This document shows, in pieces, positions 6,846 through 21,437 of a stretch of 64,000 bases of DNA. The DNA is from Patescibacteria group bacterium (lineage in GTDB: Bacteria; Patescibacteriota; Patescibacteriia; Patescibacteriales; UBA12465), in the NCBI GenBank assembly GCA_023229115.1, contig JALNZW010000003.1:1664-65663 (forward strand). Reading direction: 5' to 3'. Every line of letters starts with the position of its first letter. Position 1 is the stretch's first letter. The notes beneath the pieces are model-generated. The model saw nothing but the letters and a program-made list of their open reading frames with translations. It ran no database searches and was not told the origin of the DNA. The position numbers and the translations under genes were made by a program.

Positions 6846-6912
6846 GGTACAGATCATTGCTCCGAGGCTAGGACGCGAACGGGTCTCTCGAACCACGCCC
6901 GTCCCTCGGTAA
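6846..6912. other. GC-rich conserved intergenic motif copy 1 (GGCTAGGACGCGAACGGGTCTCTCGAACCACGCC within a ccgagg...cctcgg stem)
   Basis: Roughly 55% GC island in a roughly 30% GC genome. It shares GGCTA..GACGCG-N3-GGGTCTCTCGAA-NC-NCGC with 12401-12456 and sits immediately 3' of the minus-strand gene ending at 6917. Confidence 0.4.
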
Positions 6913-6916
6913 AAAA

Positions 6917-7861
6917 CTATTCAGTAGCCATAATAATCTCTCCACACTTATCTTTATACTGATCTACAATATCAAAAATATCATCTATTTTAGGTTCTCT
7001 AGCAGTGATTTCTTCTCCGTTTTTAAATGTCGCTGTAACTTCCAAAGCATGTGTTTGCATAACTGATTCTATTTCACATTCGGCAATAGCTTGTTTTATT
7101 AAATTCCAATTAGTAATATTTGTAAATGCATAATCTTCTGCTTTTACAATTAATTCGTCTACGTCATGATCAAATATTTTCCGTTGAACATCCTCGGGAA
7201 ATATTTTCTTAATATCTTTGGTATAATCAGCTCCATCACCTGGAGCTTCATATGAAAATTTATTTATATCATAATATGACAACTCATTTGGATAATCTAT
7301 TTTAACTGGACCAGATGAACCACTGACTGTAACTAACTTATTATTTTCAATCACATATTCTCCGCAATAGGCCCAAATATATAATGGGAATAATTCTTGG
7401 TCAGGTTTTAAATTTTTAATTGTACAAAAATTATAGCTATCATCTCGATTTTTCCAGCTAAAATGTTTTTGTATTAATAAATATCTTTCTATGGCTTGCT
7501 CTCTTGGTGTTGGGTTGTAGGCTATATTTATTTTATCTGTTACTTGGGTTGAAGCGTTAACACAAAATTGTTTTGAATGACAACTTAAATAATTTGAGAC
7601 TACCGTTTCACCACAAAGAGAGCAAGTGTCTTGATGTTCCAAGCACTCAACTTCATTTAACTTTTCACAAGCATCTTCATCGATAAAATCATTATTTTGC
7701 AAAGATAAAAGTATTCCAGGGATTATACCTACTAAAATCAGTACTACTCCTAAAATCAAATAGATTTTATTAAATTTATTTTGTTTTTTCTTTTGGGTAA
7801 AATAGATGATCAACCCAATTGTCCCCAAGATTAAAAATATTAGTGATGTTGGTATTGGCAT
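6917..7861 (-). CDS. hypothetical membrane-anchored protein (two N-terminal TM helices, Cys-rich linker, soluble C-domain)
   Basis: 314-aa ORF with no recognised motif. Confidence 0.5.
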   Translation of the reverse strand: MPIPTSLIFLILGTIGLIIYFTQKKKQNKFNKIYLILGVVLILVGIIPGILLSLQNNDFIDEDACEKLNEVECLEHQDTCSLCGETVVSNYLSCHSKQFCVNASTQVTDKINIAYNPTPREQAIERYLLIQKHFSWKNRDDSYNFCTIKNLKPDQELFPLYIWAYCGEYVIENNKLVTVSGSSGPVKIDYPNELSYYDINKFSYEAPGDGADYTKDIKKIFPEDVQRKIFDHDVDELIVKAEDYAFTNITNWNLIKQAIAECEIESVMQTHALEVTATFKNGEEITAREPKIDDIFDIVDQYKDKCGEIIMATE

Positions 7862-7889
7862 AAAGTTATATTAATAAATTTTTTAATCT

Positions 7890-8087
7890 CTAATTAATCT
7901 TAGTGTTATTATTCGTAAAAACATAAAAAAATAGAGCATTTATTATAACAAACAACAAAGAAAAAATAATAGAAAATGCTATAAAACTTTCTTCTAAACT
8001 TTTTTGTAATGCCCAAATATTTATACCAATAAATATTATTCCAATTATTGCATTGATAGAAATGTTTATAAAAATTATTTTTTTCAT
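7890..8087 (-). CDS. small hydrophobic membrane protein (65 aa)
   Basis: Two predicted TM helices, directly downstream of the 8105-9541 gene. Confidence 0.35.
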   Translation of the reverse strand: MKKIIFINISINAIIGIIFIGINIWALQKSLEESFIAFSIIFSLLFVIINALFFYVFTNNNTKIN

Positions 8088-8104
8088 AAGTATATTTTTA
8101 ATCT

Positions 8105-9541
8105 CTATAACTCATCATAATAATTTACAATACCAGAATTTTCCCCTGACACAACTTCCATATTACCAGTAATGTATACATTTAATCTACTTGTGTTTGT
8201 CGCATTAATTACCGCCTCCTCTGCTATAAATTTATCCATTTCAACCCAGCAATCACCTGAATCTATTATCAAATTCTTAGCCGAACCTGTTAAATTAATG
8301 ATACCACCATTAGCATCTAATTTCAATGTATCTATAACCTTAACATTACCCTTTATATTATTAAACCTATGAGTCAATTTTATTTCTAAATTATCAACTT
8401 CTAAACTTCCCAATTTAACATTAGCACCTTCATTTTTTATTTTTTCAACATCTGGCATGGTTATTTCTATCGCTAGGTGCTTGGTTCCTGCTCGAAACAA
8501 AATATTTCTGTTCTCTACGATCCAAGTATCAGTATTAAAAAATGTTTCAAAGCTCGATCTTTTAATATTTAAAGTATTATCAACTTTTTCAAAGTCTAAT
8601 CCGATCTGATCATACTCACTACCTTTAATTAAAATGTCAAAATCATCACCTTGCTTAATTATTATGTCATCAAATTCAACATAAGGTGATATATAGATGT
8701 TTTTAAAATCTTTAATATCAATATGACTCTCCTGAATGTTGGCCTTCATATCTGCTTCTTTTACTTTAAACCCAGAATTCAAATAAATAAATGATAAAAG
8801 AAAAATAATTAAAAAAATACCAAGATAGATAAGCAAACGCAATGATATTTTCTTGTTTAAATATTTCTTGCTAGGAAACAATGAAATTATTCCTAAATTA
8901 ATAATAAATATTAATGGTATCGCCAAAATACAAAAGATAGAAATGAGCATTGGATAATAACCCCAAAATCCAATAACATCTATAATTCTAAAATCAGCCA
9001 TTATGTATCTAAGCCAATGGCTTGAGGGGTTGAAAAATAAATATAAAAATATAACTGTGGATGTCAATATTCCCAAAGATCCAGCACCTAAAAATATTCC
9101 TCCAAATATTTTTTTAAAAGCTAGAACTATCTTTGAATTTGGATATTTTTTAAATTGCTCTGATGTGCCCCTGATAACTAATCCAATTAGACCACCCGCC
9201 AAACTTAAAACAATAAAAGGGAAAAATATACCCAACAAAGCTTCAAAACTGAAAGATGGCTTGGGCAAATATCCATGATTTGAATATGTTAATAAATAGT
9301 TAATTACTACAACTGCTATATTATTAACTAAAGTCCCGATTAATAAAATTGGTAAAAACTCATAGCTTCTATTTTTGTCTTGGACTAAAATCAATAAAAT
9401 ACCTGTCAAAAAAGGTAATAAAAGCATAATAAAAATAACTGGTAGATAGCCAAACATAATATTATCTAATCCACCAGGTAATATATTTAATACTGTAGTA
9501 ACAATTATAGTAAAAATAAAAATGTAAAAAAGTTTTTTCAT
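8105..9541 (-). CDS. membrane protein with C-terminal DUF4097-like (putative adhesin / LiaF-like beta-repeat) domain
   Basis: 478 aa with 6 or so N-terminal TM helices. The C-terminal 220 aa have repetitive beta-strand N/G/D-rich segments (NLTGSAKNLIIDSGD..., VYITGNMEVVSGENSG) typical of DUF4097. Confidence 0.5.
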   Translation of the reverse strand: MKKLFYIFIFTIIVTTVLNILPGGLDNIMFGYLPVIFIMLLLPFLTGILLILVQDKNRSYEFLPILLIGTLVNNIAVVVINYLLTYSNHGYLPKPSFSFEALLGIFFPFIVLSLAGGLIGLVIRGTSEQFKKYPNSKIVLAFKKIFGGIFLGAGSLGILTSTVIFLYLFFNPSSHWLRYIMADFRIIDVIGFWGYYPMLISIFCILAIPLIFIINLGIISLFPSKKYLNKKISLRLLIYLGIFLIIFLLSFIYLNSGFKVKEADMKANIQESHIDIKDFKNIYISPYVEFDDIIIKQGDDFDILIKGSEYDQIGLDFEKVDNTLNIKRSSFETFFNTDTWIVENRNILFRAGTKHLAIEITMPDVEKIKNEGANVKLGSLEVDNLEIKLTHRFNNIKGNVKVIDTLKLDANGGIINLTGSAKNLIIDSGDCWVEMDKFIAEEAVINATNTSRLNVYITGNMEVVSGENSGIVNYYDEL

Positions 9542-9547
9542 AAAAAT

Positions 9548-10204
9548 TTAATCCCAAGTATCTAAACCGCTTCCAGATAAAGGAATTACATCACCTAAAT
9601 ATTTTGGTTTTGAATTAAAAGTAATATTTAACCAAGCTTTAACTTTAGCTAAGACCTCTCTCCTGTTTCTAGTATCCTCACCATAGTATCTTTGCAAATC
9701 AGCGCTGACTCCACAACTATCTATTTCTAATTTATCAGCTATATATAAAGCTCTTGGCAGATGGAAATCTTGTGTTACAACAATCAGTGAATCGGCTTGA
9801 AATATTTCTTTAGCTCTATAAAGACTATCGTAGGTATCAAATCCTGCGTGATCTAAAAAAATATCTTCTGGTTTTATATTATTTTCCAACAAATATTCTT
9901 TAGCAGTATTTACCTCATCATACTCCACTTGCCCATGATCCCCACTAACTAAAATTTTATCCACCTTACCTGTGTTATATAACTCAATGGCTGTTTTGAC
10001 TCTATCTCTAAAAATATCACTCAAATTACCATTGTTCCAAACTTTAGCACCGAGAACTAAGGCAGCTTGCTTGTGGGTATTATCTAAATCACATAAATTA
10101 TTGCCAATTCGATTAATATTGATGTTGATTGCATAAATAGAACCTATCAAAACTATTATACAAATAATAAATATGGTTAATATTTTTTTCATAAACTTTA
10201 CCAA
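9548..10204 (-). CDS. DUF218 (SanA/YdcF/ElyC family) protein
   Basis: 218 aa with an N-terminal TM helix, then VLGAKVWNNG ... ILVSGDHG ... VVTQDFHLPRA, which are typical SanA/YdcF motifs. Confidence 0.7.
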   Translation of the reverse strand: MVKFMKKILTIFIICIIVLIGSIYAINININRIGNNLCDLDNTHKQAALVLGAKVWNNGNLSDIFRDRVKTAIELYNTGKVDKILVSGDHGQVEYDEVNTAKEYLLENNIKPEDIFLDHAGFDTYDSLYRAKEIFQADSLIVVTQDFHLPRALYIADKLEIDSCGVSADLQRYYGEDTRNRREVLAKVKAWLNITFNSKPKYLGDVIPLSGSGLDTWD

Positions 10205-11088
10205 TAAATTACATTTTCACTATCTGACCAGAATACATTTTCATATCTATCTTTAGACAACCTATTATTCTGTTTAATAATCTCACCTTTTTCTGTATCA
10301 AAAACAAACAATGTCCAATATTCATTTTTTGTATCATAATCAACAGATTCAATCTGTGCCTCAATAGCCAACCTGCTACTGTCAGGAGAAAAAACTATAT
10401 GGTTAAAATCAAGTAATTTGGTTTCTTTAAAACGTGTAATAAAAAACCCATCATTAATATCATCTAAATTTAATAAACGCAAACTTAAATTTTGGTTGTT
10501 ACAACTATGATTAATTTCCATAACAGGTGGATTTTTAACACATTCACTTTCTAAAAAGACCACCTTCTCACCGTCAGACGATTTAGCAACTAACTTACCT
10601 TTAGATGGTAGTTCCACTGTTTTTCTTGTCCTGAAATCTAAATAATAATTAGTAAACGGTCCATTATATAATTTTGAATCTTGCGGATAATACCAAGCTG
10701 ACCCAACTAAGGTATCCCTAGATAAAGGTGTAAGTATTGGATCTATATAGTATGTGTAAAAACCCAAAGAATCTTTAATCTCTCCATTTTGCATTATTCT
10801 AGTCCAGCCAACACCAAAATCAGTATCTTCTCCTATGTGATCAAAAGAAAATATATCATCATATTTATCTATGCTAAAAATAGATGGTTGGTTAAAACTT
10901 AAAATCTGTCCTGATAAATTATTAAACTCATTATCAATATCATCAAGCTTATTTTGTATATGACAATTAAAATATGGCGGTTGTATCAAACAAGCATCAC
11001 CACGTTTAAACCAGTAGATAAAAATAGCAACTATTGCTAATATTATTATGGCTAAAATTATACAAATTTTTCTTTTCATATTGTTCAT
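10198..11088 (-). CDS. hypothetical N-terminally anchored protein, beta-rich (TolB/beta-propeller-like repeats)
   Basis: 296 aa with an N-terminal TM helix and an FSPDSSRLA-type repeat. Confidence 0.45.
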   Translation of the reverse strand: MNNMKRKICIILAIIILAIVAIFIYWFKRGDACLIQPPYFNCHIQNKLDDIDNEFNNLSGQILSFNQPSIFSIDKYDDIFSFDHIGEDTDFGVGWTRIMQNGEIKDSLGFYTYYIDPILTPLSRDTLVGSAWYYPQDSKLYNGPFTNYYLDFRTRKTVELPSKGKLVAKSSDGEKVVFLESECVKNPPVMEINHSCNNQNLSLRLLNLDDINDGFFITRFKETKLLDFNHIVFSPDSSRLAIEAQIESVDYDTKNEYWTLFVFDTEKGEIIKQNNRLSKDRYENVFWSDSENVIYW

Positions 11089-11108
11089 TATACCTTATTT
11101 AAGACAAA

Positions 11109-11136
11109 CAAAAAACACCTCTAGAGGTGTTTTTTG
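11109..11136 (-). terminator. rho-independent terminator (acacctctagaggtgt palindrome plus T5)
   Basis: Perfect 16-bp palindrome followed by TTTTT, just past the stop of 11147-12202. Confidence 0.6.
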
Positions 11137-11146
11137 AAAATATATA

Positions 11147-12202
11147 CTATTTCTTCCAAACATTCTTTGCAAACTTCCATCCATATTTTGCAATAATAAG
11201 CATAATAAACAGATAGATAATATATTGTAGAATTAGGAATAACAATGATACTAGATTAATAGTAATATCTTGTGCAACCGTATTAATATCTCTAACAAAA
11301 GATTTTACTGCTACTTTCCATGATTCTTTTAAATTTTGCCCATCAATAAACTTATTCTCCACTACTCGAACATTAAAATATGTATATTCTAGTCGATCAA
11401 GCTGTTCCGCTTTAGATCTATTAATTCTTTCTAATTGTGCATTTATATTTATCTTTTCCTGAGTTAATCTTTCAATAATTCTTATTTTACTATCAATAAT
11501 TTTAGCTAGACTTTCTACGTCTTGAGTTCTGGTAGCTAAATCTGTAATATCGTCATAAGAGCTAACTGCATTATTTAGAGTTTCCTCAATAGAAGCCATT
11601 TTCTTTTCCAATATTTCTACTTCGCTAGTGTAGTCGTCAATTAATCTTTTAATGGTATATGTATTTTCATTTAATTCTTTAGGATCTAGTTCTTCAATAA
11701 TAGCTAATATCTCATTAACACTATCATGCTTAACTTTAAAATTATAATTACAGCTTCTTTCATATTCATTGGCATTTTCAAAAATTACATCTTCGTTTGA
11801 TTTCAGGTCAGCAACTTTTTTGCAAGTATCTTCTAGATGACGGGTTTCAATATTTGCACCATACTCAGTGACTTCGAAATCTTCAGCATCATCTCCCATT
11901 GTAGCTGTATTATCCATTGGGGGCATGAACGGTTCTGTGGCTATCACATTTCTTATAGATAAACCAACTGAACCACCCGATTCGCCATAACCCATATCTT
12001 TCATAGCGTATTCTTCATCATCCATGTCAAACATAGCATCCTGCGTGACCACACTTCTACCATTAGACCCAGGAGTTAAAGATTTAAAAGAAGATCCGAT
12101 TAAACGAAAGGCTAAAGTAATTACAATAATTACCACTAAGGCTAACCCAGCAATTTTAAAAATATTGGCTGGTTTTAAATTAAGATTGTTTGGAAATTGC
12201 AT
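11147..12202 (-). CDS. hypothetical coiled-coil protein with N- and C-terminal TM segments (DUF4349-like architecture)
   Basis: 351 aa with an N-terminal TM helix, an acidic region, a long heptad-like coiled coil and a C-terminal TM helix. Confidence 0.45.
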   Translation of the reverse strand: MQFPNNLNLKPANIFKIAGLALVVIIVITLAFRLIGSSFKSLTPGSNGRSVVTQDAMFDMDDEEYAMKDMGYGESGGSVGLSIRNVIATEPFMPPMDNTATMGDDAEDFEVTEYGANIETRHLEDTCKKVADLKSNEDVIFENANEYERSCNYNFKVKHDSVNEILAIIEELDPKELNENTYTIKRLIDDYTSEVEILEKKMASIEETLNNAVSSYDDITDLATRTQDVESLAKIIDSKIRIIERLTQEKININAQLERINRSKAEQLDRLEYTYFNVRVVENKFIDGQNLKESWKVAVKSFVRDINTVAQDITINLVSLLFLILQYIIYLFIMLIIAKYGWKFAKNVWKK

Positions 12203-12253
12203 ATGAGTTATTTAAGAGTCAATTATTAATTAATAAATAAATATATATTTTAT

Positions 12254-12284
12254 ATTATATCAGATTTTGATAAAAAATAACATT
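12254..12284 (-). promoter_or_regulatory. candidate promoter with extended -10 (TGATATAAT) for 11147-12202
   Basis: On the minus strand, atgtta-N18-tgaTATAAT lies about 45 nt upstream of the start codon. Confidence 0.3.
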
Positions 12285-12400
12285 TTTTAACCAAACAAAA
12301 AATACCTCGAATTTGAGATATTTTTTGCAACCTACTACGCATTTCAGTTCGAACCCCTTTCCCAGTAGGAAATAAAAGTATCGAACTAAAAATTGTTTTT

Positions 12401-12456
12401 GGCTAATATTAGACGCGTATGGGTCTCTCGAAACGCGCACTAGGTTGGCTCTGCGG
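12401..12456. other. GC-rich conserved intergenic motif copy 2 (GGCTAATATTAGACGCGTATGGGTCTCTCGAAACGCGC...)
   Basis: Shares the GACGCG-N3-GGGTCTCTCGAA core with 6846-6912. It also contains the 11-mer AATATTAGACG, which recurs at 20588-20598 and 21320-21330. Confidence 0.4.
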
Positions 12457-12528
12457 ATTACATATTTTCAGAGTTATTTAACATATTCCCTGCGATTAAA
12501 ATTAGTATGGGCAAACTGGAAAAAATAA

Positions 12529-13191
12529 TTAATTAATCAAAATCAGCCAAGCTTTTAAATTTTCTTTTTTTGTAAATTTATTTAGTTTTCTCCCATATCT
12601 ATTCGCCATAACACTTAGAATATAATTTATAGTTTTTTCCATTATTTCTAAGCGATCACCCGTAAACACAGCTTCTTCATTTGGTTCAAAGTTTTTATGA
12701 TAGTTCTCTATATGTATTCTATTTCTAAGCCATGCAAAATTATCTAAATATTTATAGATATTGCCATTTTCACTAAAGAGCAAATTGAATTTTCTGCAAT
12801 AATCGATAATTTCTTTAAAGTCATATCTTTTCATGGCGTAATACTTTTGAGCCTCTCCAGTGAGAACGTCAATTCTTTCTTTTTGCCTTTTGTCTTTTCC
12901 AATTTTAGATTTTATTTTTAAGACATCGTCTGAGGCCAAGCATTCTGGTAAATCATTAGTTGCGTTATCTAACCTTATTAACAAATCTATTAGTATTGCC
13001 TCTATAATCGAAACTAAAAAAATTGTGATCGGTTTATTATAACACATAGCATCTTCCTCCAAACCATTTTTCTTCGCTTCATACAATAAAAAAAGTATTT
13101 TAAAATTGTAAATTATATTGCCTCCTATATTAAAATTCCAGATAAATTCAGATAAATACATTGTTACTTCGGTTTTGTCATACTTAAACAT
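12529..13191 (-). CDS. hypothetical protein (220 aa), last gene of the putative island
   Basis: ORF with no recognised motif. It sits between the ATPase cluster and the GC-rich motif. Confidence 0.45.
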   Translation of the reverse strand: MFKYDKTEVTMYLSEFIWNFNIGGNIIYNFKILFLLYEAKKNGLEEDAMCYNKPITIFLVSIIEAILIDLLIRLDNATNDLPECLASDDVLKIKSKIGKDKRQKERIDVLTGEAQKYYAMKRYDFKEIIDYCRKFNLLFSENGNIYKYLDNFAWLRNRIHIENYHKNFEPNEEAVFTGDRLEIMEKTINYILSVMANRYGRKLNKFTKKENLKAWLILIN

Positions 13192-13245: not shown

Positions 13246-15021
13246 TTAAAACCCCTTACCTCCAAACAGTAAATCATCTTTATCTAATTTTCTTACAATG
13301 TTTTCTTTCTCAATATCAAACCCCTGAGGGACATCACTTTTAATCATGCTAACAATAAGTTGGACATCATACTGAGTACTATAACGTTTAAAAAGTTTGA
13401 TAAAATTTTTCACAGGGTTATCCCCCCAATTTTCCAAGCCGCCATCTAAATAACAAAAGTTAAAATATGAATATTTAGAATAATACAATAAGATGGCTAC
13501 AATAAACGCCACGCACTGCACTCTTGTGGCGGTGTAACCGTCTCCCTTGCCTGTTAATTTTGCTTGATTTAGCGTAACTGTTTTAAAATCTACATTATTT
13601 TCCTTATTCATATTAATGCCAATAACTGCAGTATCATCCATAGACTCTTTATATATTTCGCTAAAAATATTTTGAATTTCCCTATATTCATTTCCAGAAA
13701 GCACCTTATCGACTTCGTTTTTTATTTCATCTATAATAACCTCAATTTTTCTTTTTAGTTGTTGAACGCCTTCTTCGAGTTTCTTAATATCACTAATATT
13801 ATCCAACTGATTTCTATAATCCTTAATTTCAGATTCAATATCAATAATATCGCGCTGATAAATTTTAAACTTAACGAAAGTGTCTTTTTCTTTTAATGTC
13901 TCAAGCGCAAAAAAGCGTTTTTCATTATATTCAATCAACTTTGTTTGGATACTTTCTAATTCATTTTCAAGTTCCACAAGCTCCTCTTTTAAATACTTTT
14001 CTCTTTCCTTTGTTATATCTCTTTCAAAGCTAATTAAGTCTTCGTAATCATTAACCAATTCCTTGGGAAAATAAATTTTTGCCTCATTAAAAATTTTTTC
14101 AATTTCTTTTAAATCAACACTTTCCCGGCTTTCTATAGATTCGTTTATCTTATCTTTTTCATAAGTTACATAGTATTTTCTTGAATTTAAATCAGAAATA
14201 TTTTTCTCAATATCTTCAATTAAATCCTTATTTAATCCGGCTTCCTTTGCAAAAAAATTAAATTGGTCTATTTTTCTCTGCACAGATTCTCTTTCTTTAT
14301 TTTTTGTATCAATTATAGTTTGAATTATATTTTTTTCGTCAGACACACCATTCTCATTCGATTTTCTTTTAATATAACGCTCTTCGTGAGAAATATCATC
14401 TGCGAGTTCAAATTTGTCCAACAATAAAACGCCATTGCCTCCAAATAAGTCAAACAAAAATGGTTTCCAGTACCTATCTTTACTCTTAAAACTTTTCATT
14501 TTAAAAATATCGCCGTATTCATCCTGTTTTCTAAGAATGTATTTCAAAAAGTGACGGTAATTGTGATCCTGAAGCTTATTAAAGTTTAAATATGACTCCA
14601 ATATTTTAACAGCATTCTGTTCATTTGACTTAGTGTTTATAGACACTTCAGTATAGTCCCATGAGTCCATATCTATATTTGTAAAATCCTGATTCTTTTC
14701 TTCATGCAACTTAAAAGAGACTCTTGAACTAATATTTACGCTTCTTCTTATTGTTAAATACTTTCCACTATTTAATTTTATTTCAAGAAAAAATGTCCAA
14801 TCACGAAACTCAAGATAATTTTTTTTAAAAAAATCGCTTTGTTTTTTGAGTAATAAAAAATCAATTAAATAAACTAATGCTGTTTTACCTAAATTATGTT
14901 CATGAAATTTTCCATCTTTGTCAACCTCATTCACGACATCACCAAAAACAATATTCAAACCTTTATCGAATAATATTGGCTTCATTTTTAAATTGTTCGA
15001 ATATATTTTGCTCAACATCAT
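13246..15021 (-). CDS. P-loop NTPase with SMC/ABC-like architecture (DUF2326/YydD-like; candidate ABC-3C-type ATPase)
   Basis: 591 aa. The N-terminal GLNIVFGDV...HNLGKTALVYLIDFLL is a Walker A (GKT) in the SMC/RecF/ABC-like N-terminal style. There is a long central coiled coil (ELVELENELESIQTKLIEYNEK...) and a C-terminal YLDGGLENWGD block. Confidence 0.6.
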   Translation of the reverse strand: MMLSKIYSNNLKMKPILFDKGLNIVFGDVVNEVDKDGKFHEHNLGKTALVYLIDFLLLKKQSDFFKKNYLEFRDWTFFLEIKLNSGKYLTIRRSVNISSRVSFKLHEEKNQDFTNIDMDSWDYTEVSINTKSNEQNAVKILESYLNFNKLQDHNYRHFLKYILRKQDEYGDIFKMKSFKSKDRYWKPFLFDLFGGNGVLLLDKFELADDISHEERYIKRKSNENGVSDEKNIIQTIIDTKNKERESVQRKIDQFNFFAKEAGLNKDLIEDIEKNISDLNSRKYYVTYEKDKINESIESRESVDLKEIEKIFNEAKIYFPKELVNDYEDLISFERDITKEREKYLKEELVELENELESIQTKLIEYNEKRFFALETLKEKDTFVKFKIYQRDIIDIESEIKDYRNQLDNISDIKKLEEGVQQLKRKIEVIIDEIKNEVDKVLSGNEYREIQNIFSEIYKESMDDTAVIGINMNKENNVDFKTVTLNQAKLTGKGDGYTATRVQCVAFIVAILLYYSKYSYFNFCYLDGGLENWGDNPVKNFIKLFKRYSTQYDVQLIVSMIKSDVPQGFDIEKENIVRKLDKDDLLFGGKGF

Positions 15022-15254
15022 AAAACAAATTCTATTACATCTTTATTTTTATAATACTTAATTTTTCTTATTGCGAATAAAAAACAAAGTGATTTTAAAT
15101 ATAAACCCTTTACTCGCTGACCTTTTATAACGATCAGTCTCCGAAGTAAATCATCATATCCAATTATTTTATTTTCCATCAGAATTTTTAACAACACAGA
15201 GCTAATATTTAAAACAGAGTATTCTAAATTTAAATGTTTTGTTGGTTTTAACAT
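15018..15254 (-). CDS. small protein (78 aa from internal Met; the ORF track gives a 129-aa version overlapping the upstream gene) - possible middle component
   Basis: The start was chosen at MLKPTK to avoid a 149-nt overlap with 15259-16236. Its stop overlaps the ATPase start (ATGA-type coupling). Confidence 0.35.
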   Translation of the reverse strand: MLKPTKHLNLEYSVLNISSVLLKILMENKIIGYDDLLRRLIVIKGQRVKGLYLKSLCFLFAIRKIKYYKNKDVIEFVL

Positions 15255-15258
15255 AATA

Positions 15259-16236
15259 TTATGGATTAATACCAAGATCACAATTGAAATACATATAATG
15301 AAGAAGCGTAAATATTTTTCTTTTATCGTATCCCAAGTCTTTAGTAAATTTTTCTTCCACTCTATTATAAACTTCTTGAAAAAACTCAGAAATACTATAA
15401 TATTCATCCTTTTTTGAAATATAAATTTCTTGGAGTTCGTTAAAAACAGAATTATAACAATTTAAAACTTCTTCATTAGCGTCTTCGCTCAAAAAAGATC
15501 TAATAGGGAGATGATGCCTAATATTTTTTCTAACTATATTTTCAAAATAATCTGAAGACATATTATTCTTAATATTCTTTATCTTAATGTCTTTTCTGGT
15601 CGGAATTTTAGTTATTTTCATCTCTGCGATTACGCCATTCTTAATTTCATCGCGAAGTTTTAATACCAAATTTTTTATATCCTCTTCGTTTAAACGAATC
15701 GGTTCATGTAAATTAATTTTAATGTAATCTGCTATATTAATATCTAATATTTTTAAAAGTTTTGACCATTTAACGGGGCTTAGTTGATTAATATCATTGA
15801 CAAGGTCGAAAATATCTTTAATTTGTGTTGTTTTATCAAAATTAAATTTTCCATCAATCTCCTTTTCAAAATCAACAGATTTATACCCACCAGAGCTTTT
15901 TTTACCAATAATAAAAATTATTAACTCGGGAAATTCAAGCGCTCTTGTCGAATGGCTTCTAAGAGTGTCTTTAATTTTTTCAGATCTACTTTCTGACGTT
16001 ATCTGATATGCCACTCCAGCACCTTTGTCACCAAGATCAATGCCTTTTATATTTTTTTCTACCTGATTTAAATTTTTTAAATTAAGATTATAGATTTCAT
16101 TCAAAAAAGTACAAAAAAAATCCTCACTTTTTTTATGAATATCAAATAAACACTGAGAGCCTCTTTGCTCAACATTATTTCGCAATACTCCGAGAGCATC
16201 ACTAATTTGCAAATTAATACCTATACTTTTTAACAT
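15259..16236 (-). CDS. hypothetical protein, candidate effector/sensor of the ATPase cluster (C-terminal R-x4-H HEPN-like motif RKNIRHH)
   Basis: 325 aa with conserved-looking IKGIDLGDKGAGVAYQITS and C-terminal YFENIVRKNIRHHLPIRSF. It is co-directional with, and tightly spaced to, the small ORF and the ATPase. Confidence 0.45.
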   Translation of the reverse strand: MLKSIGINLQISDALGVLRNNVEQRGSQCLFDIHKKSEDFFCTFLNEIYNLNLKNLNQVEKNIKGIDLGDKGAGVAYQITSESRSEKIKDTLRSHSTRALEFPELIIFIIGKKSSGGYKSVDFEKEIDGKFNFDKTTQIKDIFDLVNDINQLSPVKWSKLLKILDINIADYIKINLHEPIRLNEEDIKNLVLKLRDEIKNGVIAEMKITKIPTRKDIKIKNIKNNMSSDYFENIVRKNIRHHLPIRSFLSEDANEEVLNCYNSVFNELQEIYISKKDEYYSISEFFQEVYNRVEEKFTKDLGYDKRKIFTLLHYMYFNCDLGINP

Positions 16237-16369
16237 TTAACTTTAATTATACATCCTTAATGCAAACATAAAATGTGTGAAAAATTGCGTTTTTAGATAT
16301 ATAGAAAAACAATTTTAATATCTTTATTTTAACAGAAAAACCGTTTTAAATCAAAATGACATTCATAAA

Positions 16370-16393
16370 CAAAAAGACGCCTAAACGGCGTCT
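16370..16393 (-). terminator. rho-independent terminator overlapping the methyltransferase stop codon
   Basis: agacgcc/ggcgtct 7-bp stem with the TAG stop in the loop, followed by TTTTT on the minus strand. Confidence 0.55.
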
Positions 16394-17631
16394 CTTAGTG
16401 ATTCTCCTAATTTTTTAATAACTCCGACAACTAAAGCATTGCCCATAATGAATGCTCTTTTAATATCAGGAGCCATTTCAGTATGATTATCAGGAAACAT
16501 ATTTAATCTTTCAAGCTCCAAAGGCATTAATCTTCTCAGCCTTCCTGACTTTGTCTTTATTACATGTTTAAATCTTGATGGAGATGTTCCTCCTTCACCA
16601 GTAACTATTGTTCGAGAAGGTTTATTAATTAAATCAGGAAAGGCCATTTTTCCTTCAGAATAATTATACTCATGTCCGTCTTTAGATTTCCTTGGTGCCG
16701 TCTTTCCACCCTTTAAATATTCCCACCTCTTGATATCAGCAGGTTTAATAAAAAACTCTTCGGGAACTTTTTTTTCATCAATTAAAAAGTCTCCCAATAT
16801 TGAACTCTTACCCTTATAATCTGATTCAACCTTCATTGTTGTTACATGCCCGTTTATCATTACTCCGGCGTTTTCAAATGGACTCTTCGATGGCATATCC
16901 TTTGAAAATTTTTCAGAAACATAAACATAATCAGTGCCAATTTCAAATTGACTAAATTTAACCACGTCTTGATTAACCTTAAAAGCCTTAGCTATTAAAC
17001 CATCATTATTTATCCATTTCTTTTTATCTTTACAGGCTAAAACTTTTTTCCAAATAGATGTATTTTGTTTATAACCCATTATATAAATACGCCGACGACG
17101 TTGAGGAAAACCATAATCAGCGGCATTAATAACTCTCCACTCTACTGCGTAACCGAGTTTAGCTAAAGAGGACAACATAATAGCAAAATCACGACCTCTT
17201 TGTTTAACAGGAGATTTTAATAATCGATCAACATTTTCCAATAATAGAAACTTAGGAGTATTTTTGCCCTTCTTATTGAGAATATTAAAAATAGACCACC
17301 ATAGAACTCCTTTCTTTCCCTCCAGCCCTTTTGATTGCTTAAGTGTCCTGGCAACTGAATAATCTTGGCAAGGAAAACCGCCAACTAATAAATCATGATT
17401 AGGAATGTCATCAAATTTCATATCAACCACCTCTTGTATATCTTCACAAGAGTGTCCTTTACCACCAAAACGAGCCACATAAATATCTGAAGCATACTGT
17501 TTTTTGGCTCCTGGCTCCCACTGACTACTCCAAACAACTCTATATTTTGTATTATTATTACTGGCACCCTCAAGACCAATTCGAAAACCGCCCACACCAG
17601 CAAAAAGCTCAACGATTTTTATCTCCTTCAT
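16381..17631 (-). CDS. DNA (cytosine-5)-methyltransferase
   Basis: Motif I ELFAGVGGF, motif IV GGFPCQDYS, motif VI ENV and motif X MGNALVVGV. It is 416 aa, matching the M.Sau3AI size class. Confidence 0.9.
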   Translation of the reverse strand: MKEIKIVELFAGVGGFRIGLEGASNNNTKYRVVWSSQWEPGAKKQYASDIYVARFGGKGHSCEDIQEVVDMKFDDIPNHDLLVGGFPCQDYSVARTLKQSKGLEGKKGVLWWSIFNILNKKGKNTPKFLLLENVDRLLKSPVKQRGRDFAIMLSSLAKLGYAVEWRVINAADYGFPQRRRRIYIMGYKQNTSIWKKVLACKDKKKWINNDGLIAKAFKVNQDVVKFSQFEIGTDYVYVSEKFSKDMPSKSPFENAGVMINGHVTTMKVESDYKGKSSILGDFLIDEKKVPEEFFIKPADIKRWEYLKGGKTAPRKSKDGHEYNYSEGKMAFPDLINKPSRTIVTGEGGTSPSRFKHVIKTKSGRLRRLMPLELERLNMFPDNHTEMAPDIKRAFIMGNALVVGVIKKLGESLRDAV

Positions 17632-17697
17632 AATATTTCTCTAATTAATAAGCTATGCATGTAGCATAGCATATCAAAAAAAATTGATCAACACCCC

Positions 17698-19125
17698 TTA
17701 TTTTTCGAGGTTTTTCCTTATATAATCAGCATTAAGCCAGAAACAATGTTTCGTATAAAACTTACTACCTGTAAATTCATCTTCCGTTGGAAGTTCTATT
17801 ACATCAGAGGAATCCTTTCCATGAGGCCTAACATGTGCAACTCCATTAAACTTTGATGTTGGAAAGAAGGTAAATCTTCTTTCTTTGCCATTTTTATATT
17901 TTTTTATTTCTTTAACTATTTTACCTTTATCAACTAATTTCTTAGTCTTGCTCCAAACACTCTCAGCGTAGTTCATGTCAGAGGCGGGAAAGTTCCAAAA
18001 TTTATAGCCCTCAAAATGAATTAGATCTTTTGTCTTATCTTTATCTTTCCTAAAAATTATAAACAAAAACCTATCTTCTTCTAACATCTTGAAGAAATTA
18101 GTTTCCTCCCATTTCTGTTTCAGAATTTGTTTATAGTTAAAATATGGAAACGAGATTGATTCTTTTAATTTACCATTACTTTCTAACACCACAACTTTCA
18201 TTGTGACATTAGATTTCTCAAACTCCTCAACCTTATTAGCTGATATGCCGAGCATGAGATTGGCAAGTAATCTTTTATATTGCTTAGTTTTCTTATTAAC
18301 CTTAAGGCCAATCTCAGAAAGTATCTGTTTATCAGACATCCCAATAAAAGGAGCTAATCTATCATCAACAGACTTATCTATTGTCTTTCCTTTTTCGGAT
18401 ATAGATTGAATATCCCCCTCCAATCCCATAATCTTTTCATGGAGAATAAAATTTAAATAGTTTTGCTTCAAAGAAAAGGCTCTTGGCTTTGCTTGTATGT
18501 CAGAGTTTGGCTGCTTTCTTGTAATAGAACTATTAGCCGCCTTCGTGCAAGCACCGAGATAAAAAGTCTCGCCCTCTGAAAGTAAATGCGCCTCCCCTCT
18601 TTTAATTTTATTTATAATATACTCCCAATCATTCTTAATCTGCAAAGCATCTTCAGCAGAAATCTTGTTCACTAAATCAAGTTCATAAAGAAACTTAAAT
18701 TTATATTCCAATAAACTTAGGTCGCTCTCATAAAGATAAAACATAAGTAATATTAACTTATTCTTATCCAAAAATGAACTATGCTCCCAATCTTCTAATA
18801 CAACAGATACATAGTCTATCATTGAGAATACAAGGCGTTCTTTAACGGCATATTCTTTGCTTTTATGTTTTTTTATTGGCGTTGTTTTTAATTCAACTCC
18901 GGCAATCTTAAAGTCAGCCTCATGTCTATTGTCCACCAAAGCCTGGTTAAATACATATTTTTGAACAAGTTGACCAAGAAATCCTTTTCTTTTTTTTCCG
19001 TGTTTTTCTATATCTCTTTTTGCCTCAGCAACATCATCTTTTTCCATCACATCAAGAAGGCGCTTATCCATAAAGGCTAAGGCATCATTAAAGACTTCTT
19101 CTTTTGTGTTATAAACTTTTAACAT
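17698..19125 (-). CDS. type II restriction endonuclease, Sau3AI/MutH family (predicted GATC-specific)
   Basis: 475 aa. The MutH-like catalytic region is DNRHEADFKIAGVELKTTPIKK (D...E-x-K with the GVELKT motif), and the gene lies directly upstream of the C5-MTase. Confidence 0.7.
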   Translation of the reverse strand: MLKVYNTKEEVFNDALAFMDKRLLDVMEKDDVAEAKRDIEKHGKKRKGFLGQLVQKYVFNQALVDNRHEADFKIAGVELKTTPIKKHKSKEYAVKERLVFSMIDYVSVVLEDWEHSSFLDKNKLILLMFYLYESDLSLLEYKFKFLYELDLVNKISAEDALQIKNDWEYIINKIKRGEAHLLSEGETFYLGACTKAANSSITRKQPNSDIQAKPRAFSLKQNYLNFILHEKIMGLEGDIQSISEKGKTIDKSVDDRLAPFIGMSDKQILSEIGLKVNKKTKQYKRLLANLMLGISANKVEEFEKSNVTMKVVVLESNGKLKESISFPYFNYKQILKQKWEETNFFKMLEEDRFLFIIFRKDKDKTKDLIHFEGYKFWNFPASDMNYAESVWSKTKKLVDKGKIVKEIKKYKNGKERRFTFFPTSKFNGVAHVRPHGKDSSDVIELPTEDEFTGSKFYTKHCFWLNADYIRKNLEK

Positions 19126-19131
19126 AAATTA

Positions 19132-19938
19132 TTAAACAATCAACTTTATTTTTGAATCTCTCAAAAATCTGGTTAAGGTTCTTTTTTCTTGACCACCCCT
19201 TGGCACTCTTCCGTAAAATCTTTGTGATCCGACTCTTTTAGTACAGTAACTTATGTAAAGACCGTGCTTAGCTCTTGTCATTGAAACATAAAGCAATCTT
19301 CTTTCGTCTCCAATAAATTCACCTTCATTTTTCCCTGGTAAAAACTCATCTTCAGCCCCAACAATAAAGCAAACATCAAATGTTAACCCTTTAGCTTTGT
19401 GCATAGTAAGAATACTAACAGCATCCTTTTCTGCACTCTGTTCTATTCTATCAGAATTAATACCGATAGACTTTACTATGCTCTCTAATGTATCAGATTC
19501 ATCTGAAATATATTTAACAAAATATTTTAAAATCCTCTCACGTAAAACGGTATCTTCCACATAGTGCTCTATAACTCCTTTAACTTTATCAATTAAATTG
19601 TCTATTTTATTAAATTCTTCTAAATCATCTTCTACTTTTTCAACGAAACTCTTTATCTTTTCTCCATATTTACTAACAACAATATTTTGCTTTATTTCTT
19701 GTAAAGATTTACTGAATCTAAGATTTTTATCAACTGCTATTCGAAAAACATCATCAATACTTTTTTCTCCAATATTATTTTTAGCAAGCTCCAAGAGTGT
19801 TCTCCACGCTAAATCATCTTCTTTATTCGATAATAATCTAAAAATAGAAAGGACGACTCTAAATTCTGACTGGCTTTCTAATGCTGAATCAGGGGCACCC
19901 GCAATCATGATACCATTACCAACAAGCACATCACTCAT
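19132..19938 (-). pseudogene. helicase C-terminal fragment (SF1 UvrD-like motifs V-VI) of a disrupted nuclease-helicase gene
   Basis: ILTMHKAKGLTFDVCFIVGAED ... LLYVSMTRAKHGLYI are UvrD/PcrA helicase C-terminal motifs. No Walker A/B is found in this ORF. Confidence 0.55.
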
Positions 19939-19973
19939 TAAACTTAAAATGGCAGCACTTCTTGATAATATGA

Positions 19974-20558
19974 CTATTTTTTCTGCTGGAACACCTTTAC
20001 TAATACATCAAATGCTGATAAATAAGTCTTTCCAAGACCTGTGGCGAATACTACAAGACCTTTGTTTTTGCCAGATTTTCTTGTTTCATCTAAAGCCTCA
20101 AGGGCACGATTTTGAATATAGTGAGGCTCAACATCTCCCAACCTATTTAAATATATTTTATAAAGTTGTTCATCACCTATAAAACTTCTTCTTATTTCCC
20201 AAATGCAAGATTGAGGCTCTTTTCTTATTAAATCATTGGTAAATCGTATTAGATGAAAACCCTCTTTTATAATTTCGTTTTGCTTGTTTTGTAAATGATT
20301 AAAATATTCTTTAGTAACAGCTCCTTGCGCGTGATAATAGAGGCCGTCACACTCTATTGCATATTTTTTAAATTTTGTTGTTATAACAAAATCTAGTCTA
20401 TACACACCAGAACCATCTGGTTTAGGTATTTCATATTCTGGAGTAATATAATCAAGCCCCTTTTCTCCAAAATCTTTATAATAAACATTGATTATAAAGG
20501 TTTTACCCAAATCATTTAGCTTGTTTTTATATTTAAATAAAAAATCATTTAGTTTCAT
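19974..20558 (-). pseudogene. N-terminal fragment: DUF559/Vsr-like PD-(D/E)xK endonuclease domain plus helicase Walker A (ATGLGKTY), truncated
   Basis: YRLDFVI...AIECDGLYYH nuclease motifs, then GLVVFATGLGKTYLS. The ORF ends 20 residues later. The next ORF is in a different frame and carries only C-terminal helicase motifs. Confidence 0.5.
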
Positions 20559-20682: not shown

Positions 20683-20979
20683 TCACTTCTTTTTTCTGCA
20701 GACATCGCACCCCGCCATGCCAGTAAACCATGGCCAATGTTCAATGCTATTACTAAATTTAATATATGAATTTGATACTGGTCTATGAATTCTATTCTTT
20801 TTACATTTTGGACATAGAATGCCATTACAAAGACAGGTAACTGAAATTAGCTTTTCACCTTCTTCTGGACTGTTATTGAAAAAATCGTTACCCCAATTTA
20901 AATATTTTTTCATTATTTTTCCATTATATTCCCCGCAAACTTTGCACTCAATTAAACCTTTCGAAATTTCGTTTTCCAT
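20683..20979 (-). CDS. Cys-rich zinc-ribbon protein (hypothetical)
   Basis: 98 aa with CKVC, CLC...CPKC and CDVC pairs. Confidence 0.5.
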   Translation of the reverse strand: MENEISKGLIECKVCGEYNGKIMKKYLNWGNDFFNNSPEEGEKLISVTCLCNGILCPKCKKNRIHRPVSNSYIKFSNSIEHWPWFTGMAGCDVCRKKK

Positions 20980-21049: not shown

Positions 21050-21170
21050 AAATCGACCTTTATCTTCCCCATCTAGGGCTAGGTTTAGCACCTTCTGAAT
21101 GGATTACTTCAGGGTTGCTGGCAGGTCATCGGGCTAGTTCCCTCACTGCACTCTTTATAAATAGATTATT
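21050..21170 (-). ncRNA. candidate structured ncRNA (GC-rich island, unidentified family)
   Basis: A roughly 55% GC, 120-nt island in an AT-rich spacer. On the minus strand an extended -10 (gTGcTATAAT, plus-strand 21190-21200) lies just upstream, and a hairpin plus T-run (about 21005-21040) lies downstream. Nested complementarity is present (gcag..ctgc, cggg..ccc). Confidence 0.35.
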
Positions 21171-21249
21171 CAATTGTAATTATATTATAGCACTATTACT
21201 ATCAAGAATAAAACAAGGCTCGGATTCGAACTAAGATTATCCTTCATAT

Positions 21250-21312
21250 AAAGCTCTTTTAGTTCATTTGACTTAATTAAAAGAGCTCAGCCTAAACTGA
21301 GTTCTTTTAATT
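21250..21312. other. stable hairpin pair (agctctttt...aaaagagct outer stem; ctcag-cctaaa-ctgag inner hairpin plus T-run)
   Basis: 9-bp and 5-bp stems followed by ttcttttaatttttt. Possibly a terminator for tRNA-Asn read-through or a small RNA. Confidence 0.35.
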
Positions 21313-21362
21313 TTTTAGTAATATTAGACGACTCCTGTCGGTCTACTACACTAAAACGTTGT

Positions 21363-21437
21363 TGGCTCCGAGGGTGGGATTCGAACCCACGACCAATTGA
21401 TTAACAGTCAACTGCGCTACCGCTGCGCCACCTCGGA
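21363..21437 (-). tRNA. tRNA-Asn (anticodon GTT)
   Basis: Manual cloverleaf TCCGAGG-TG-GCGC-AGCGGTA-GCGC-A-GTTGA-CTGTTAA-TCAAT-TGGTC-GTGGG-TTCGAAT-CCCAC-CCTCGGA-G-CCA. It has a 7-bp acceptor stem, U33 and A37, anticodon GUU, and an encoded CCA. Confidence 0.9.

Follow-up and report, generated by a model that had tools for sequence, protein, structure and literature searches.

The three-gene ABC-3C systems are now understood as type II Lamassu, composed of LmuA, LmuC and LmuB in that order (10.1101/2025.06.23.660979; PMC10586767), and a sequestration-and-release mechanism has been described for Lamassu (10.1101/2025.03.14.643221). Within those parts of Haudiquet et al. (PNAS 2025, PMC12663957) that treat the short form, LmuB is given an average length of ~600 aa and a diversified Walker B (hhhhD[Q/S/T/E]), the C-terminal domain of LmuA is short (five to six helices), LmuC is small, and SMEK already appears among the effector types. 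Because SMEK is listed there as a short-Lamassu effector, the locus described here is a further example of an already known system type, and its earlier description as a possible unstudied variant, given in a first-pass annotation of this DNA, was an overstatement. Short-form type II Lamassu with SMEK is reportedly equivalent to the ABC-3C of Krishnan et al. 2020. The literature searched yielded no experiments with SMEK-type Lamassu, this locus included, and nothing useful on DUF2326, YydD/YydB or PDC-M68; we therefore regard the SMEK-Lamassu clade, with its D-G Walker B, its lack of a zinc hook and a nuclease also found in short-Argonaute systems, as a reasonable target for study.

ORF listing and sequence reading of the window (the whole 64,000-nt stretch of DNA that was analysed) place three same-direction, closely coupled genes on the minus strand at 13246-16236, the 325-aa gene being followed by a small gene and then by a 591-aa gene (Table 1). 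These genes very probably constitute an intact short-form three-gene Lamassu (type II, i.e., ABC-3C) with the order lmuA-lmuC-lmuB, located in a part of a Patescibacteria genome that varies between strains, beside a Sau3AI-type restriction-modification (R-M) operon. All three proteins pass the curated Pfam cut-offs of ABC-3C families (SMEK_N, CTD12, MC8 and DUF2326), and the hallmarks of type II Lamassu are present: an LmuB with a coiled-coil insert, a small LmuC between the two larger genes, and an LmuA that joins a variable N-terminus to a C-terminal domain (CTD). The dimensions are those of the short form, with an LmuB of 591 aa, a CTD12 helical bundle spanning residues 184-318 and an LmuC of 78 aa. 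The proposal of an ABC-3C-type conflict system built on an SMC/Rad50-style ATPase is thus borne out, and the locus, at first thought impossible to assign to a named system, can be placed in type II Lamassu (10.1101/2025.06.23.660979). We see in it an ordinary representative of a known family, carried by an unusual lineage; the host, initially called CPR-like, belongs to the Patescibacteria according to the NCBI names of the matches. What had been a candidate “unassigned conflict system” can now be labelled short Lamassu of standard make-up, with a predicted DNA nuclease as its effector.

Table 1. Positions of the Lamassu genes, their domains and motifs, and neighbouring features in the window
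Feature	Position	Strand	Basis or description
lmuA, effector, 325 aa (SMEK_N + CTD12)	15259..16236	-	Pfam, NCBIfam, AlphaFold
SMEK_N domain of LmuA, aa 10-150	15787..16209	-	Mrr-like PD-(D/E)xK fold; conserved D67, D70, Q78-x-T80, S85, K87
CTD12 of LmuA, aa 178-322, helical C-terminal domain	15271..15705	-	Pfam PF20279, 61.8 bits (cut-off 25)
lmuC, middle component, 78 aa	15018..15254	-	Pfam MC8/MC6; position between lmuA and lmuB
lmuB, SMC/Rad50-like ABC ATPase, 591 aa, “short” Lamassu type	13246..15021	-	Pfam DUF2326, PADLOC, AlphaFold, Foldseek
Walker A / P-loop of LmuB, aa 39-47, FHEHNLGKT (H42-N-L-G45-K46-T47)	14881..14907	-	H42, G45 and K46 invariant in 29 homologues
Coiled-coil insert of LmuB, aa 197-461	13639..14433	-	Long helices in model; without CxxC zinc hook
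Deviant Walker B of LmuB, aa 522-530, FCYLDGGLE	13432..13458	-	D526-G527, not D-E; acidic residue at +4
220-aa gene	13191..12529	-	54 nt downstream of lmuB; unannotated family
Possible extended -10 box, TGTATAAT	16246..16253	-	Ends 9 nt before lmuA ATG; putative, read from the sequence
Terminator-like hairpin	16372..16396	-	10-bp stem with 5 G-C pairs, then T-run; 3' of methylase gene

The tight coupling reported by the first-pass annotation, including the overlap of the ATPase start with the small-ORF stop, proved exact in its coordinates. The lmuA stop codon (TAA, 15261-15259) is followed, 4 nt further, by the ATG of lmuC at 15254, and at an ATGATG junction the lmuC TGA (15020-15018) overlaps the lmuB ATG (15021-15019); lmuA, lmuC and lmuB are all full length relative to their homologues and translationally coupled. 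The cluster was also correctly placed directly behind the terminator of an R-M operon: a hairpin with a T-run lies behind the methylase gene and, as judged from its sequence, ends the upstream Sau3AI-type operon and bounds the Lamassu transcription unit at its 5' end. A promoter consensus scan returned sites at chance level (47 found, 48 expected).

LmuB was identified by family models and by fold. Besides DUF2326, the protein matches two PADLOC models, PDC-M68B (6.7e-34) and LmuB (1.3e-14), the latter nearly full length over residues 3-559. That the candidate model PDC-M68B outscores LmuB in the 2023 PADLOC models gives the locus a modest value as a cataloguing example. PADLOC returned only these two models for the ATPase, with neither an HNH nor a TOPRIM partner such as would point to Septu (PtuA) or Gabija (GajA). 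In the AlphaFold model (pLDDT 86) an N-terminal lobe is followed by helices that form the coiled-coil insert and by a separate C-terminal lobe (464-580), an architecture that the initial reading had recognised along with the N-terminal Walker A. Structure prediction likewise upheld the P-loop/ABC fold: Foldseek ranked YydD first (9a6c_A, 4e-23), then four independent cryo-EM LmuB chains (9uxh_F at 1.1e-12, 9hqx_f, 9hqu_B and 9ux7_A; E 1e-12 to 1e-9), and then Rad50/SMC heads. When solved structures were searched by sequence, with the ATPase alone and with a 29-sequence profile, no LmuB chain was returned, only coiled-coil noise; the link to LmuB draws on family models and fold because the protein is too diverged for a sequence match to the solved chains.

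The Walker B of this LmuB is strongly conserved in an unusual form. D526 is present in 29/29 homologues, G527 in 28/29, and position 530 is E or D in 29/29, whereas position 525, which is H in the Y-H-D-G motif of the family, is L here and also varies in two other members. The motif thus reads hhhhD-G, which does not fit the hhhhD[Q/S/T/E] reported for short Lamassu, and for this reason the behaviour of the ATPase may differ. We take D-G as clade variation rather than grounds for exclusion because PMC12663957, in its passages on the short form, calls the Walker B “diversified”. By analogy with what is reported for other short LmuB proteins, the D-G form suggests that ATP turnover may be slow or regulatory. 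No CxxC zinc hook was found in LmuB, which has only two cysteines (503 and 523), or in the 29 homologues.

LmuA combines a predicted nuclease with a helical C-terminal domain. Its N-terminal half matches SMEK_N in both Pfam (8.9e-38) and NCBIfam (5.2e-27), and CTD12 is matched at 1.3e-16; the length agrees with that of homologues (320-334 aa). SMEK_N has the alpha-beta fold of a restriction endonuclease, in which acidic residues and a lysine are conserved, and the AlphaFold model (pLDDT 82) matches restriction endonucleases in structure comparison. At the sequence level (E 3.7e-12) the domain is homologous to an Mrr nuclease domain of known structure, and all conserved nuclease residues are retained in the homologue alignment. 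We refer to a predicted nuclease with a putative substrate because SMEK_N carries Q-x-T where classical Mrr has (D/E/Q)-x-K. CTD12 forms seven helices (184 to 318) in the model and is predicted to be a docking module for LmuB and LmuC; when the LmuA model is compared with the PDB by Foldseek, the top match is YydB (9a6c_B, prob 1.00), part of the YydD-YydB complex model. Elsewhere, SMEK_N is found fused to NACHT, to SAVED and, as seen in the Aga_REase model of PADLOC and the Kordia entry of the PDB, to Argonaute-partner proteins, as would be expected of an exchangeable effector module.

The middle gene encodes a protein of 78 aa that scores 29.7 bits with MC8 (cut-off 25) and 25.6 bits with MC6 (cut-off 27.2). 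A longer reading of it as a 129-aa ORF (15407..15018) was rejected, as this would run 149 nt into the 325-aa gene; the true start is M52 (15254). The shorter size is backed by two gene calls made independently on public contigs, and homologues are 79-83 aa.

Conservation of the gene triplet, proposed earlier as a check, was confirmed together with the suggested HMM searches, which gave DUF2326, SMEK_N, CTD12 and MC8 from Pfam and LmuB from PADLOC. The order [variable N-terminal domain + CTD12]-[MC6/MC8]-[DUF2326] was found in four other genomes, each with an MC6/MC8 gene at the equivalent position. In Labilibaculum, of the Bacteroidota, and in one Parcubacteria genome the N-terminus of the effector is SMEK_N; in Yersinia bercovieri the N-terminal region is without a Pfam match; and in Bacillus paralicheniformis the effector gene consists of CTD12 only (196 aa). 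Among these homologous operons, then, the N-terminal domain of the effector is exchanged and CTD12 is kept.

We compared the locus with the described systems nearest to it. It resembles short SMEK Lamassu, as portrayed in the relevant portions of PMC12663957, in its lmuA-lmuC-lmuB order, an LmuB that is ~600 aa long and has a short coiled coil, an LmuA made of an N-terminal SMEK and a helical C-terminus, and a prototypical Walker A with a diversified Walker B; it departs from that description in having D-G rather than D[Q/S/T/E] and in its Patescibacteria host. With Vibrio cholerae DdmABC/VcLmuACB and Salmonella enterica LmuACB (9uxh, 9hqu, 9hqx) it shares three components, a nuclease effector and the fold of LmuB (Foldseek E 1e-12 to 1e-10; structural-alignment identity 12-14%), as well as, with the Vibrio clade, the absence of a zinc hook. 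However, the LmuB proteins have no detectable sequence similarity, and those systems use a Cap4-type nuclease, CTD7 and MC3, in contrast to SMEK_N, CTD12 and MC8/MC6 here. Structurally, Bacillus subtilis YydB-YydD (9a6c, an integrative model), whose YydD shares the DUF2326 family with our LmuB, is the closest match to the ATPase (E 4e-23, TM 0.60) as well as to the effector CTD; unlike LmuA, YydB is 481 aa long with another N-terminal domain, and sequence identity is only 17% between the ATPases and 12% between the effectors. The type I Lamassu of Bacillus cellulasensis, BcLmuAB (9ux7), likewise has CTD12 as the CTD of LmuA and a similar LmuB fold (E 1.1e-9), but differs in having two genes, no LmuC and a Cap4 nuclease effector. 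Finally, the Mrr domain of the short-Argonaute system SPARMA from Kordia jejudonensis (26bh) aligns with SMEK_N at E 3.7e-12, with IDLxD ... QITS ... S-x-K-I-x-D-T-L in common. There the nuclease is joined to APAZ and under the control of an Argonaute, whereas here it is joined to CTD12 and, by analogy, would be controlled by an SMC-like ATPase.

Upstream of the Lamassu genes lies a pair encoding a Dcm-type methylase and an endonuclease that scores 429 bits with the Sau3AI family (cut-off 300); GATC sites were not depleted (138 against 141 expected). A close sister strain, 97.7% identical over a 5.6 kb flank, is without the R-M and Lamassu segment at the junction, which marks this segment as accessory. 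Because the sequence to either side of the shared 5.6-kb block is different in the sister strain, we describe a variable junction and not a simple insertion, and this one sister-strain comparison gave no clean “empty site” for the island. The island had been called tRNA-flanked; a tRNA does adjoin the region, but it is the only one in the window (tRNA-Asn, 21437..21363), and tRNA-adjacent is therefore the appropriate term. Also in the island are two genes that look like fragments, one a 194-aa DUF559/ResIII N-terminus and the other a 268-aa UvrD C-terminus. Small-genome Patescibacteria, on this evidence, carry full SMC-based abortive-infection systems beside R-M genes, in strain-variable regions.

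By analogy with the Vibrio, Salmonella and Bacillus complexes of known structure, a dimer of LmuB together with LmuC would hold one LmuA by its CTD at the coiled coil, and the nuclease would thereby be kept monomeric and inactive. The LmuB heads would bind DNA ends or aberrant replication intermediates from phage or plasmid, and this binding would free LmuA, which could then oligomerise and cut DNA without sequence specificity. The infected cell would die, and the infection would be aborted.

A different effector chemistry was suggested by the string RKNIRHH in the 325-aa protein, from which the first-pass annotation took that protein to be HEPN-like; an ABC-3C system with a HEPN RNase effector would, on activation, cleave RNA through an R-x4-H motif. 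The string does exist, at residues 236-242 and in an all-helical region, but that region is Pfam CTD12, the docking domain, and conservation there is not that of a HEPN motif: R236 occurs in 13/24 homologues, H241 in 3/24 and H242 in 1/24, with a consensus of IRGHLxYN. LmuA matched no HEPN Pfam family at E up to 0.1, and its conserved polar residues sit in the N-terminal half, the SMEK_N domain. Because the string is unconserved and the N-terminal domain has a restriction-endonuclease fold, we reject the HEPN reading as scarcely credible. A housekeeping role, in which the ATPase would be an SMC/Rad50/RecN-type repair or chromosome-maintenance protein with two accessory proteins, draws on the resemblance of its fold to Rad50, SbcC and SMC heads and on a weak NCBIfam match to the Rad50 coiled coil. 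Rad50 and SMC nevertheless rank below YydD and LmuB, the partner proteins belong to ABC-3C-specific families, the sister strain is without the genes at this junction, homologues are patchy across phyla and have PHROG relatives, and the neighbour is an R-M operon; such a role is highly improbable. The locus might instead be a decaying or inactive Lamassu remnant, like the helicase fragments in the same island, and the L at position 525 of LmuB could be read in that way. Yet that position varies in two other members of the family, the three ORFs are full length with intact start/stop coupling, and all invariant nuclease and Walker A/B residues are kept, which makes decay very unlikely.

Also to be weighed against a three-gene Lamassu is a four-gene system, in which the 220-aa gene would be a functional part of the operon, e.g., a second effector or a regulator. 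It lies on the same strand, no terminator-like site occurs in the gap after lmuB, and its family tends toward defence contexts. On the other hand, a downstream homologue is present in 0/4 of the other Lamassu loci examined (two genes downstream of the Parcubacteria Lamassu were considered and found to be unrelated), and in four other contexts examined the 220-aa family is not beside Lamassu, so that we give the four-gene arrangement very little chance. We retain the three-gene Lamassu and treat the 220-aa gene as a neighbour, whose family is the only element of the locus that could lead to something new. It is possible, though somewhat doubtful, that at least one of the following is true: (i) the clade with a D-G, hookless LmuB and a SMEK Q-x-T...K nuclease works unlike Cap4-type systems, e.g., with ATP bound unhydrolysed or with another trigger or substrate, or (ii) the 220-aa gene is a new stand-alone defence gene. 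The 220-aa protein had no match in Pfam, PADLOC or NCBIfam and none by PDB profile search, its match among PHROGs being a weak one (E 0.007) to a family of unknown function; further members of the family likewise lack a Pfam or meaningful PADLOC match. A HEPN-like identity was considered for it and set aside, as its R-N-x-x-H motif is one residue shorter than R-x4-6-H and no family match supports it. The family comprises 669 clusters at 50% identity, in which R-N-x-x-H is invariant, and its members recur within or next to defence loci, in one case embedded in a type I restriction-modification operon.

As judged from profile searches, the domain composition of the three co-directional minus-strand genes at 13246-16236, whose coordinates the first-pass annotation gave exactly according to ORF listing and direct sequence reading, matches an ABC-three-component (ABC-3C) system, the Pfam families of all three proteins being those defined for such systems. 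The 325-aa protein matched SMEK_N (aa 10-150, 8.9e-38) and CTD12 (aa 178-322, 1.3e-16), the small protein MC8 (over cut-off) and MC6, and the ATPase DUF2326. In PADLOC, the ATPase matched the candidate model PDC-M68B (6.7e-34) and, across almost its full length, LmuB (1.3e-14); the N-terminal half of the 325-aa protein matched a model for an Argonaute-associated protein, in that model's restriction-endonuclease part (2.9e-39). ABC-3C corresponds to type II Lamassu, LmuA-LmuC-LmuB (10.1101/2025.06.23.660979; PMC10586767). The earlier proposal of an ABC-3C-type conflict system is thus borne out by the families found on all three proteins and by the LmuB match, and we refer to the genes as lmuA, lmuC, and lmuB.

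The small gene was listed as a 129-aa ORF, in which form it overlaps lmuA by 149 nt; an alternative in-frame ATG, four bases past the lmuA TAA, yields 78 aa, a form that still gives a passing MC8 match and that agrees in size with the gene as called on two public contigs that contain this sequence. The middle genes of homologous operons encode 79-83 aa. The lmuC stop overlaps the lmuB start in the string ATGATG, as had been claimed, and this overlap, together with the start/stop spacing, indicates that all three genes are tightly coupled. A hairpin and T-run terminates the upstream methylase gene, confirming that the cluster lies directly after the terminator of a restriction-modification operon.

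Coordinates of features in and around the Lamassu operon
Feature	Position	Strand	Basis or remark
lmuA, 325-aa ORF	16236..15259	minus	ORF listing
lmuC, 129-aa form	15407..15018	minus	ORF listing
lmuC, 78-aa form	ATG at 15254	minus	alternative start
lmuC stop/lmuB start	15021-15016	minus	ATGATG
lmuB, 591-aa ORF	15021..13246	minus	ORF listing
220-aa gene	13191..12529	minus	54 nt downstream of lmuB; no terminator in gap
Two-block repeat	12450-12404		copies tRNA-Asn 3' end and flank, about 21365-21319
Repeat pair	12404-12466, 21319-21365		resembles attachment-site remnants
Hairpin and T-run	16396-16372		terminates methylase gene
Sau3AI-family endonuclease and C5-methylase	16381-19125		type II pair; GATC recognition predicted
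194-aa ORF	within 19132-20558	minus	DUF559/MTES_1575-type endonuclease and first 44 positions of ResIII helicase
268-aa ORF	within 19132-20558	minus	UvrD C-terminal domain only; GajB-like PADLOC matches
98-aa cysteine-rich ORF	20683-20979		no family match
Terminator-like hairpin	21029-21006		with SAM-I riboswitch
SAM-I riboswitch	21057-21163	minus	Rfam RF00162
GTTCGAATCCGAGC	21218-21231	minus	about 130 nt downstream of tRNA-Asn
tRNA-Asn	21437..21363		only tRNA in window

Synteny is conserved: in the neighborhoods of four ATPase homologues, the order CTD12-containing gene, MC6/MC8 gene, DUF2326 gene recurred at all four loci. The effector combines SMEK_N and CTD12 in Labilibaculum antarcticum and on a Parcubacteria contig; in Yersinia bercovieri it is a 315-aa protein whose N-terminal region, lacking a Pfam match, precedes CTD12, and in Bacillus paralicheniformis the effector gene (196 aa) encodes CTD12 only. 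The ATPase homologues are patchily spread over Patescibacteria, Bacteroidota, Firmicutes, Proteobacteria, and one archaeon, and PHROG relatives exist for all three components. This patchy distribution and domain exchange is what has been described for Lamassu, a modular and horizontally mobile pattern.

The catalytic motifs of LmuB are intact. In a 29-sequence alignment, the Walker A core residues H42, G45, and K46 and the signature-region G495 are invariant, a Q-loop-like R164-x-Q166 is present, Walker B consists of four hydrophobic residues followed by D526-G527 (G in 28/29), and position 530 is acidic throughout (29/29); a CxxC zinc hook was found in none of the 29 sequences. In the AlphaFold model (pLDDT 86), long helices (197-461) lie between two nucleotide-binding lobes, in agreement with the predicted coiled-coil insert and separate C-terminal lobe. 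Foldseek comparison with the PDB likewise supported an ABC-type fold, the best match being Bacillus subtilis YydD (9a6c_A, E 4e-23), followed by LmuB chains of Vibrio (9uxh_F), Salmonella (9hqx, 9hqu), and Bacillus (9ux7_A), with Rad50, SMC, MukB, and JetC ranking below these. Sequence searches of the PDB with either the single ATPase or a profile recovered no solved LmuB, indicating that this LmuB clade lies far from the solved systems. With its 591 aa, the protein falls in the “short” Lamassu class, in which LmuB averages about 600 aa (PMC12663957); the Walker B of that class is given as hhhhD[Q/S/T/E] (PMC12663957), to which the D-G seen here adds another variant.

The 325-aa protein had been read as HEPN-like from its R-x4-H motif. 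We reject this reading: the string RKNIRHH (aa 236-242) lies inside CTD12, its histidines are kept in only 3/24 and 1/24 homologues, and no HEPN family in Pfam matched the protein. The conserved polar residues of LmuA cluster instead in the N-terminal domain, where, in a 24-sequence alignment, I66-D67-L68-G69, Q78, T80, and K87 are invariant, and D70 and S85 are kept in 23 and 21 sequences, respectively. A phmmer search of PDB sequences returned one significant relative, 26bh_D (E 3.7e-12), entitled “Mrr domain from Kordia jejudonensis Mrr-APAZ pAgo”, which shares with LmuA the motifs IDLxD, QITS, and S-x-K-I-x-D-T-L. A SPARDA preprint refers to the Mrr domain as the Kordia system's nuclease domain (10.1101/2025.04.08.647717), and the title of a work cited there (Kim et al. 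2020) calls the Kordia Argonaute system a nucleic-acid-guided nuclease. We predict LmuA to be an Mrr/PD-(D/E)xK-type DNA nuclease. In its AlphaFold model (pLDDT 82), an alpha-beta N-terminal domain is followed by a helical C-terminal domain; the sole confident Foldseek match was YydB, which pairs with YydD in 9a6c, and, given its 149 aligned columns, this match most likely spans the C-terminal domain. Elsewhere, SMEK_N is fused to NACHT/AAA_16 and to SAVED, a pattern that portable immune effector domains typically show.

By analogy with the solved systems, we postulate that an LmuB dimer with LmuC would hold the C-terminal domain of a single LmuA at the coiled coil, keeping the nuclease monomeric; binding of LmuB to DNA ends or unusual replication structures would free LmuA, which would then oligomerise and degrade DNA, with death of the infected cell as the outcome. 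Judging from the D-G Walker B, ATP turnover may be slow or purely regulatory. The suggestion that the cluster may be an unstudied variant went too far, as SMEK is already among the named effectors of short Lamassu (PMC12663957) and existing Pfam and NCBIfam models label the proteins; the locus therefore belongs to a known kind of system. It is distinguished in small points: the D-G Walker B, the lack of a zinc hook, the CPR host, and a Q-x-T...K nuclease motif in LmuA in common with a short-Argonaute nuclease.

The 220-aa protein encoded downstream of lmuB had no match in Pfam, PADLOC, NCBIfam, or the PDB. Its unannotated family comprises 669 clusters at 50% identity, with invariant residues including F20, G23, N25, E64, D69, and R156-N157-x-x-H160. 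Family members elsewhere occur within a type I restriction-modification operon (L013), adjoin DUF3644, TerB_N, toxin-antitoxin, and Fic genes (L011 and L012), or adjoin a reverse transcriptase (RVT_1) and a PDDEXK nuclease (PDDEXK_1; L007); one further relative has housekeeping neighbors. Among the loci examined, the family is not linked to Lamassu elsewhere, and we consider the gene a candidate stand-alone defence gene.

Identical proteins at NCBI are sourced to “Patescibacteria group bacterium”. The location of the operon is accessory. A sister-strain contig, JAVEZP010000002.1 (L014), recovered using the 351-aa protein encoded just past the cluster, is 97.7% identical in DNA to window 6859-12466; in the 10 kb past the junction it has no 220-aa, Lamassu, or restriction-modification genes, nor helicase-type fragments; a tRNA-Gln is followed there by NUDIX genes and an adenosine-deaminase-like gene instead. 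Homology stops at 12466 for L014 and, for a second contig sharing this junction (L015), at 12451, directly beside a two-block repeat (AGCCAAC, ~30 nt, then GTCTAATATTA) that duplicates the 3' terminus of tRNA-Asn with its flank and whose 11-mer occurs three times in the window versus 0.07 expected. Together, these data define the stretch from tRNA-Asn to about 12451 as a strain-variable, tRNA-adjacent region; the description as a tRNA-flanked island holds as to adjacency but not as to flanking. No integrase lies within this stretch, and the sister strain diverges at the other end of the shared block as well, so that the comparison shows a variable junction rather than a single clean insertion. 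A Magasanikbacteria genome has tRNA-Asn just 2.6 kb upstream of its homologue of the 351-aa gene.

The paired repeats would bound a variable region of roughly 9 kb containing the restriction-modification genes, the Lamassu operon, and the 220-aa gene. L014 6084-6252, downstream of tRNA-Gln, is 75% identical to the tRNA-Asn flank (window 21220-21388), and L014 15341-15432 matches window 12294-12451 as a second, partial junction copy after the shared 5.6-kb block; such repeats may mediate gene-block rearrangement between strains. GTTCGAATCCGAGC looks like a piece of a tRNA (T-arm and acceptor), possibly left over from an older integration. The upstream Sau3AI-family endonuclease (NCBIfam 429 bits, cut-off 300) is paired with a C5-cytosine methylase, and GATC was not depleted across the window (138 sites versus 141 expected), consistent with either (i) recent acquisition or (ii) effective methylation. 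The 194-aa and 268-aa ORFs lie side by side and look like parts of a single, degraded helicase-nuclease gene. Finally, a SAM-I riboswitch (62.2 bits, gathering score 44.4) precedes the 98-aa cysteine-rich ORF, an unusual regulated gene for this element, here in a Patescibacteria genome.
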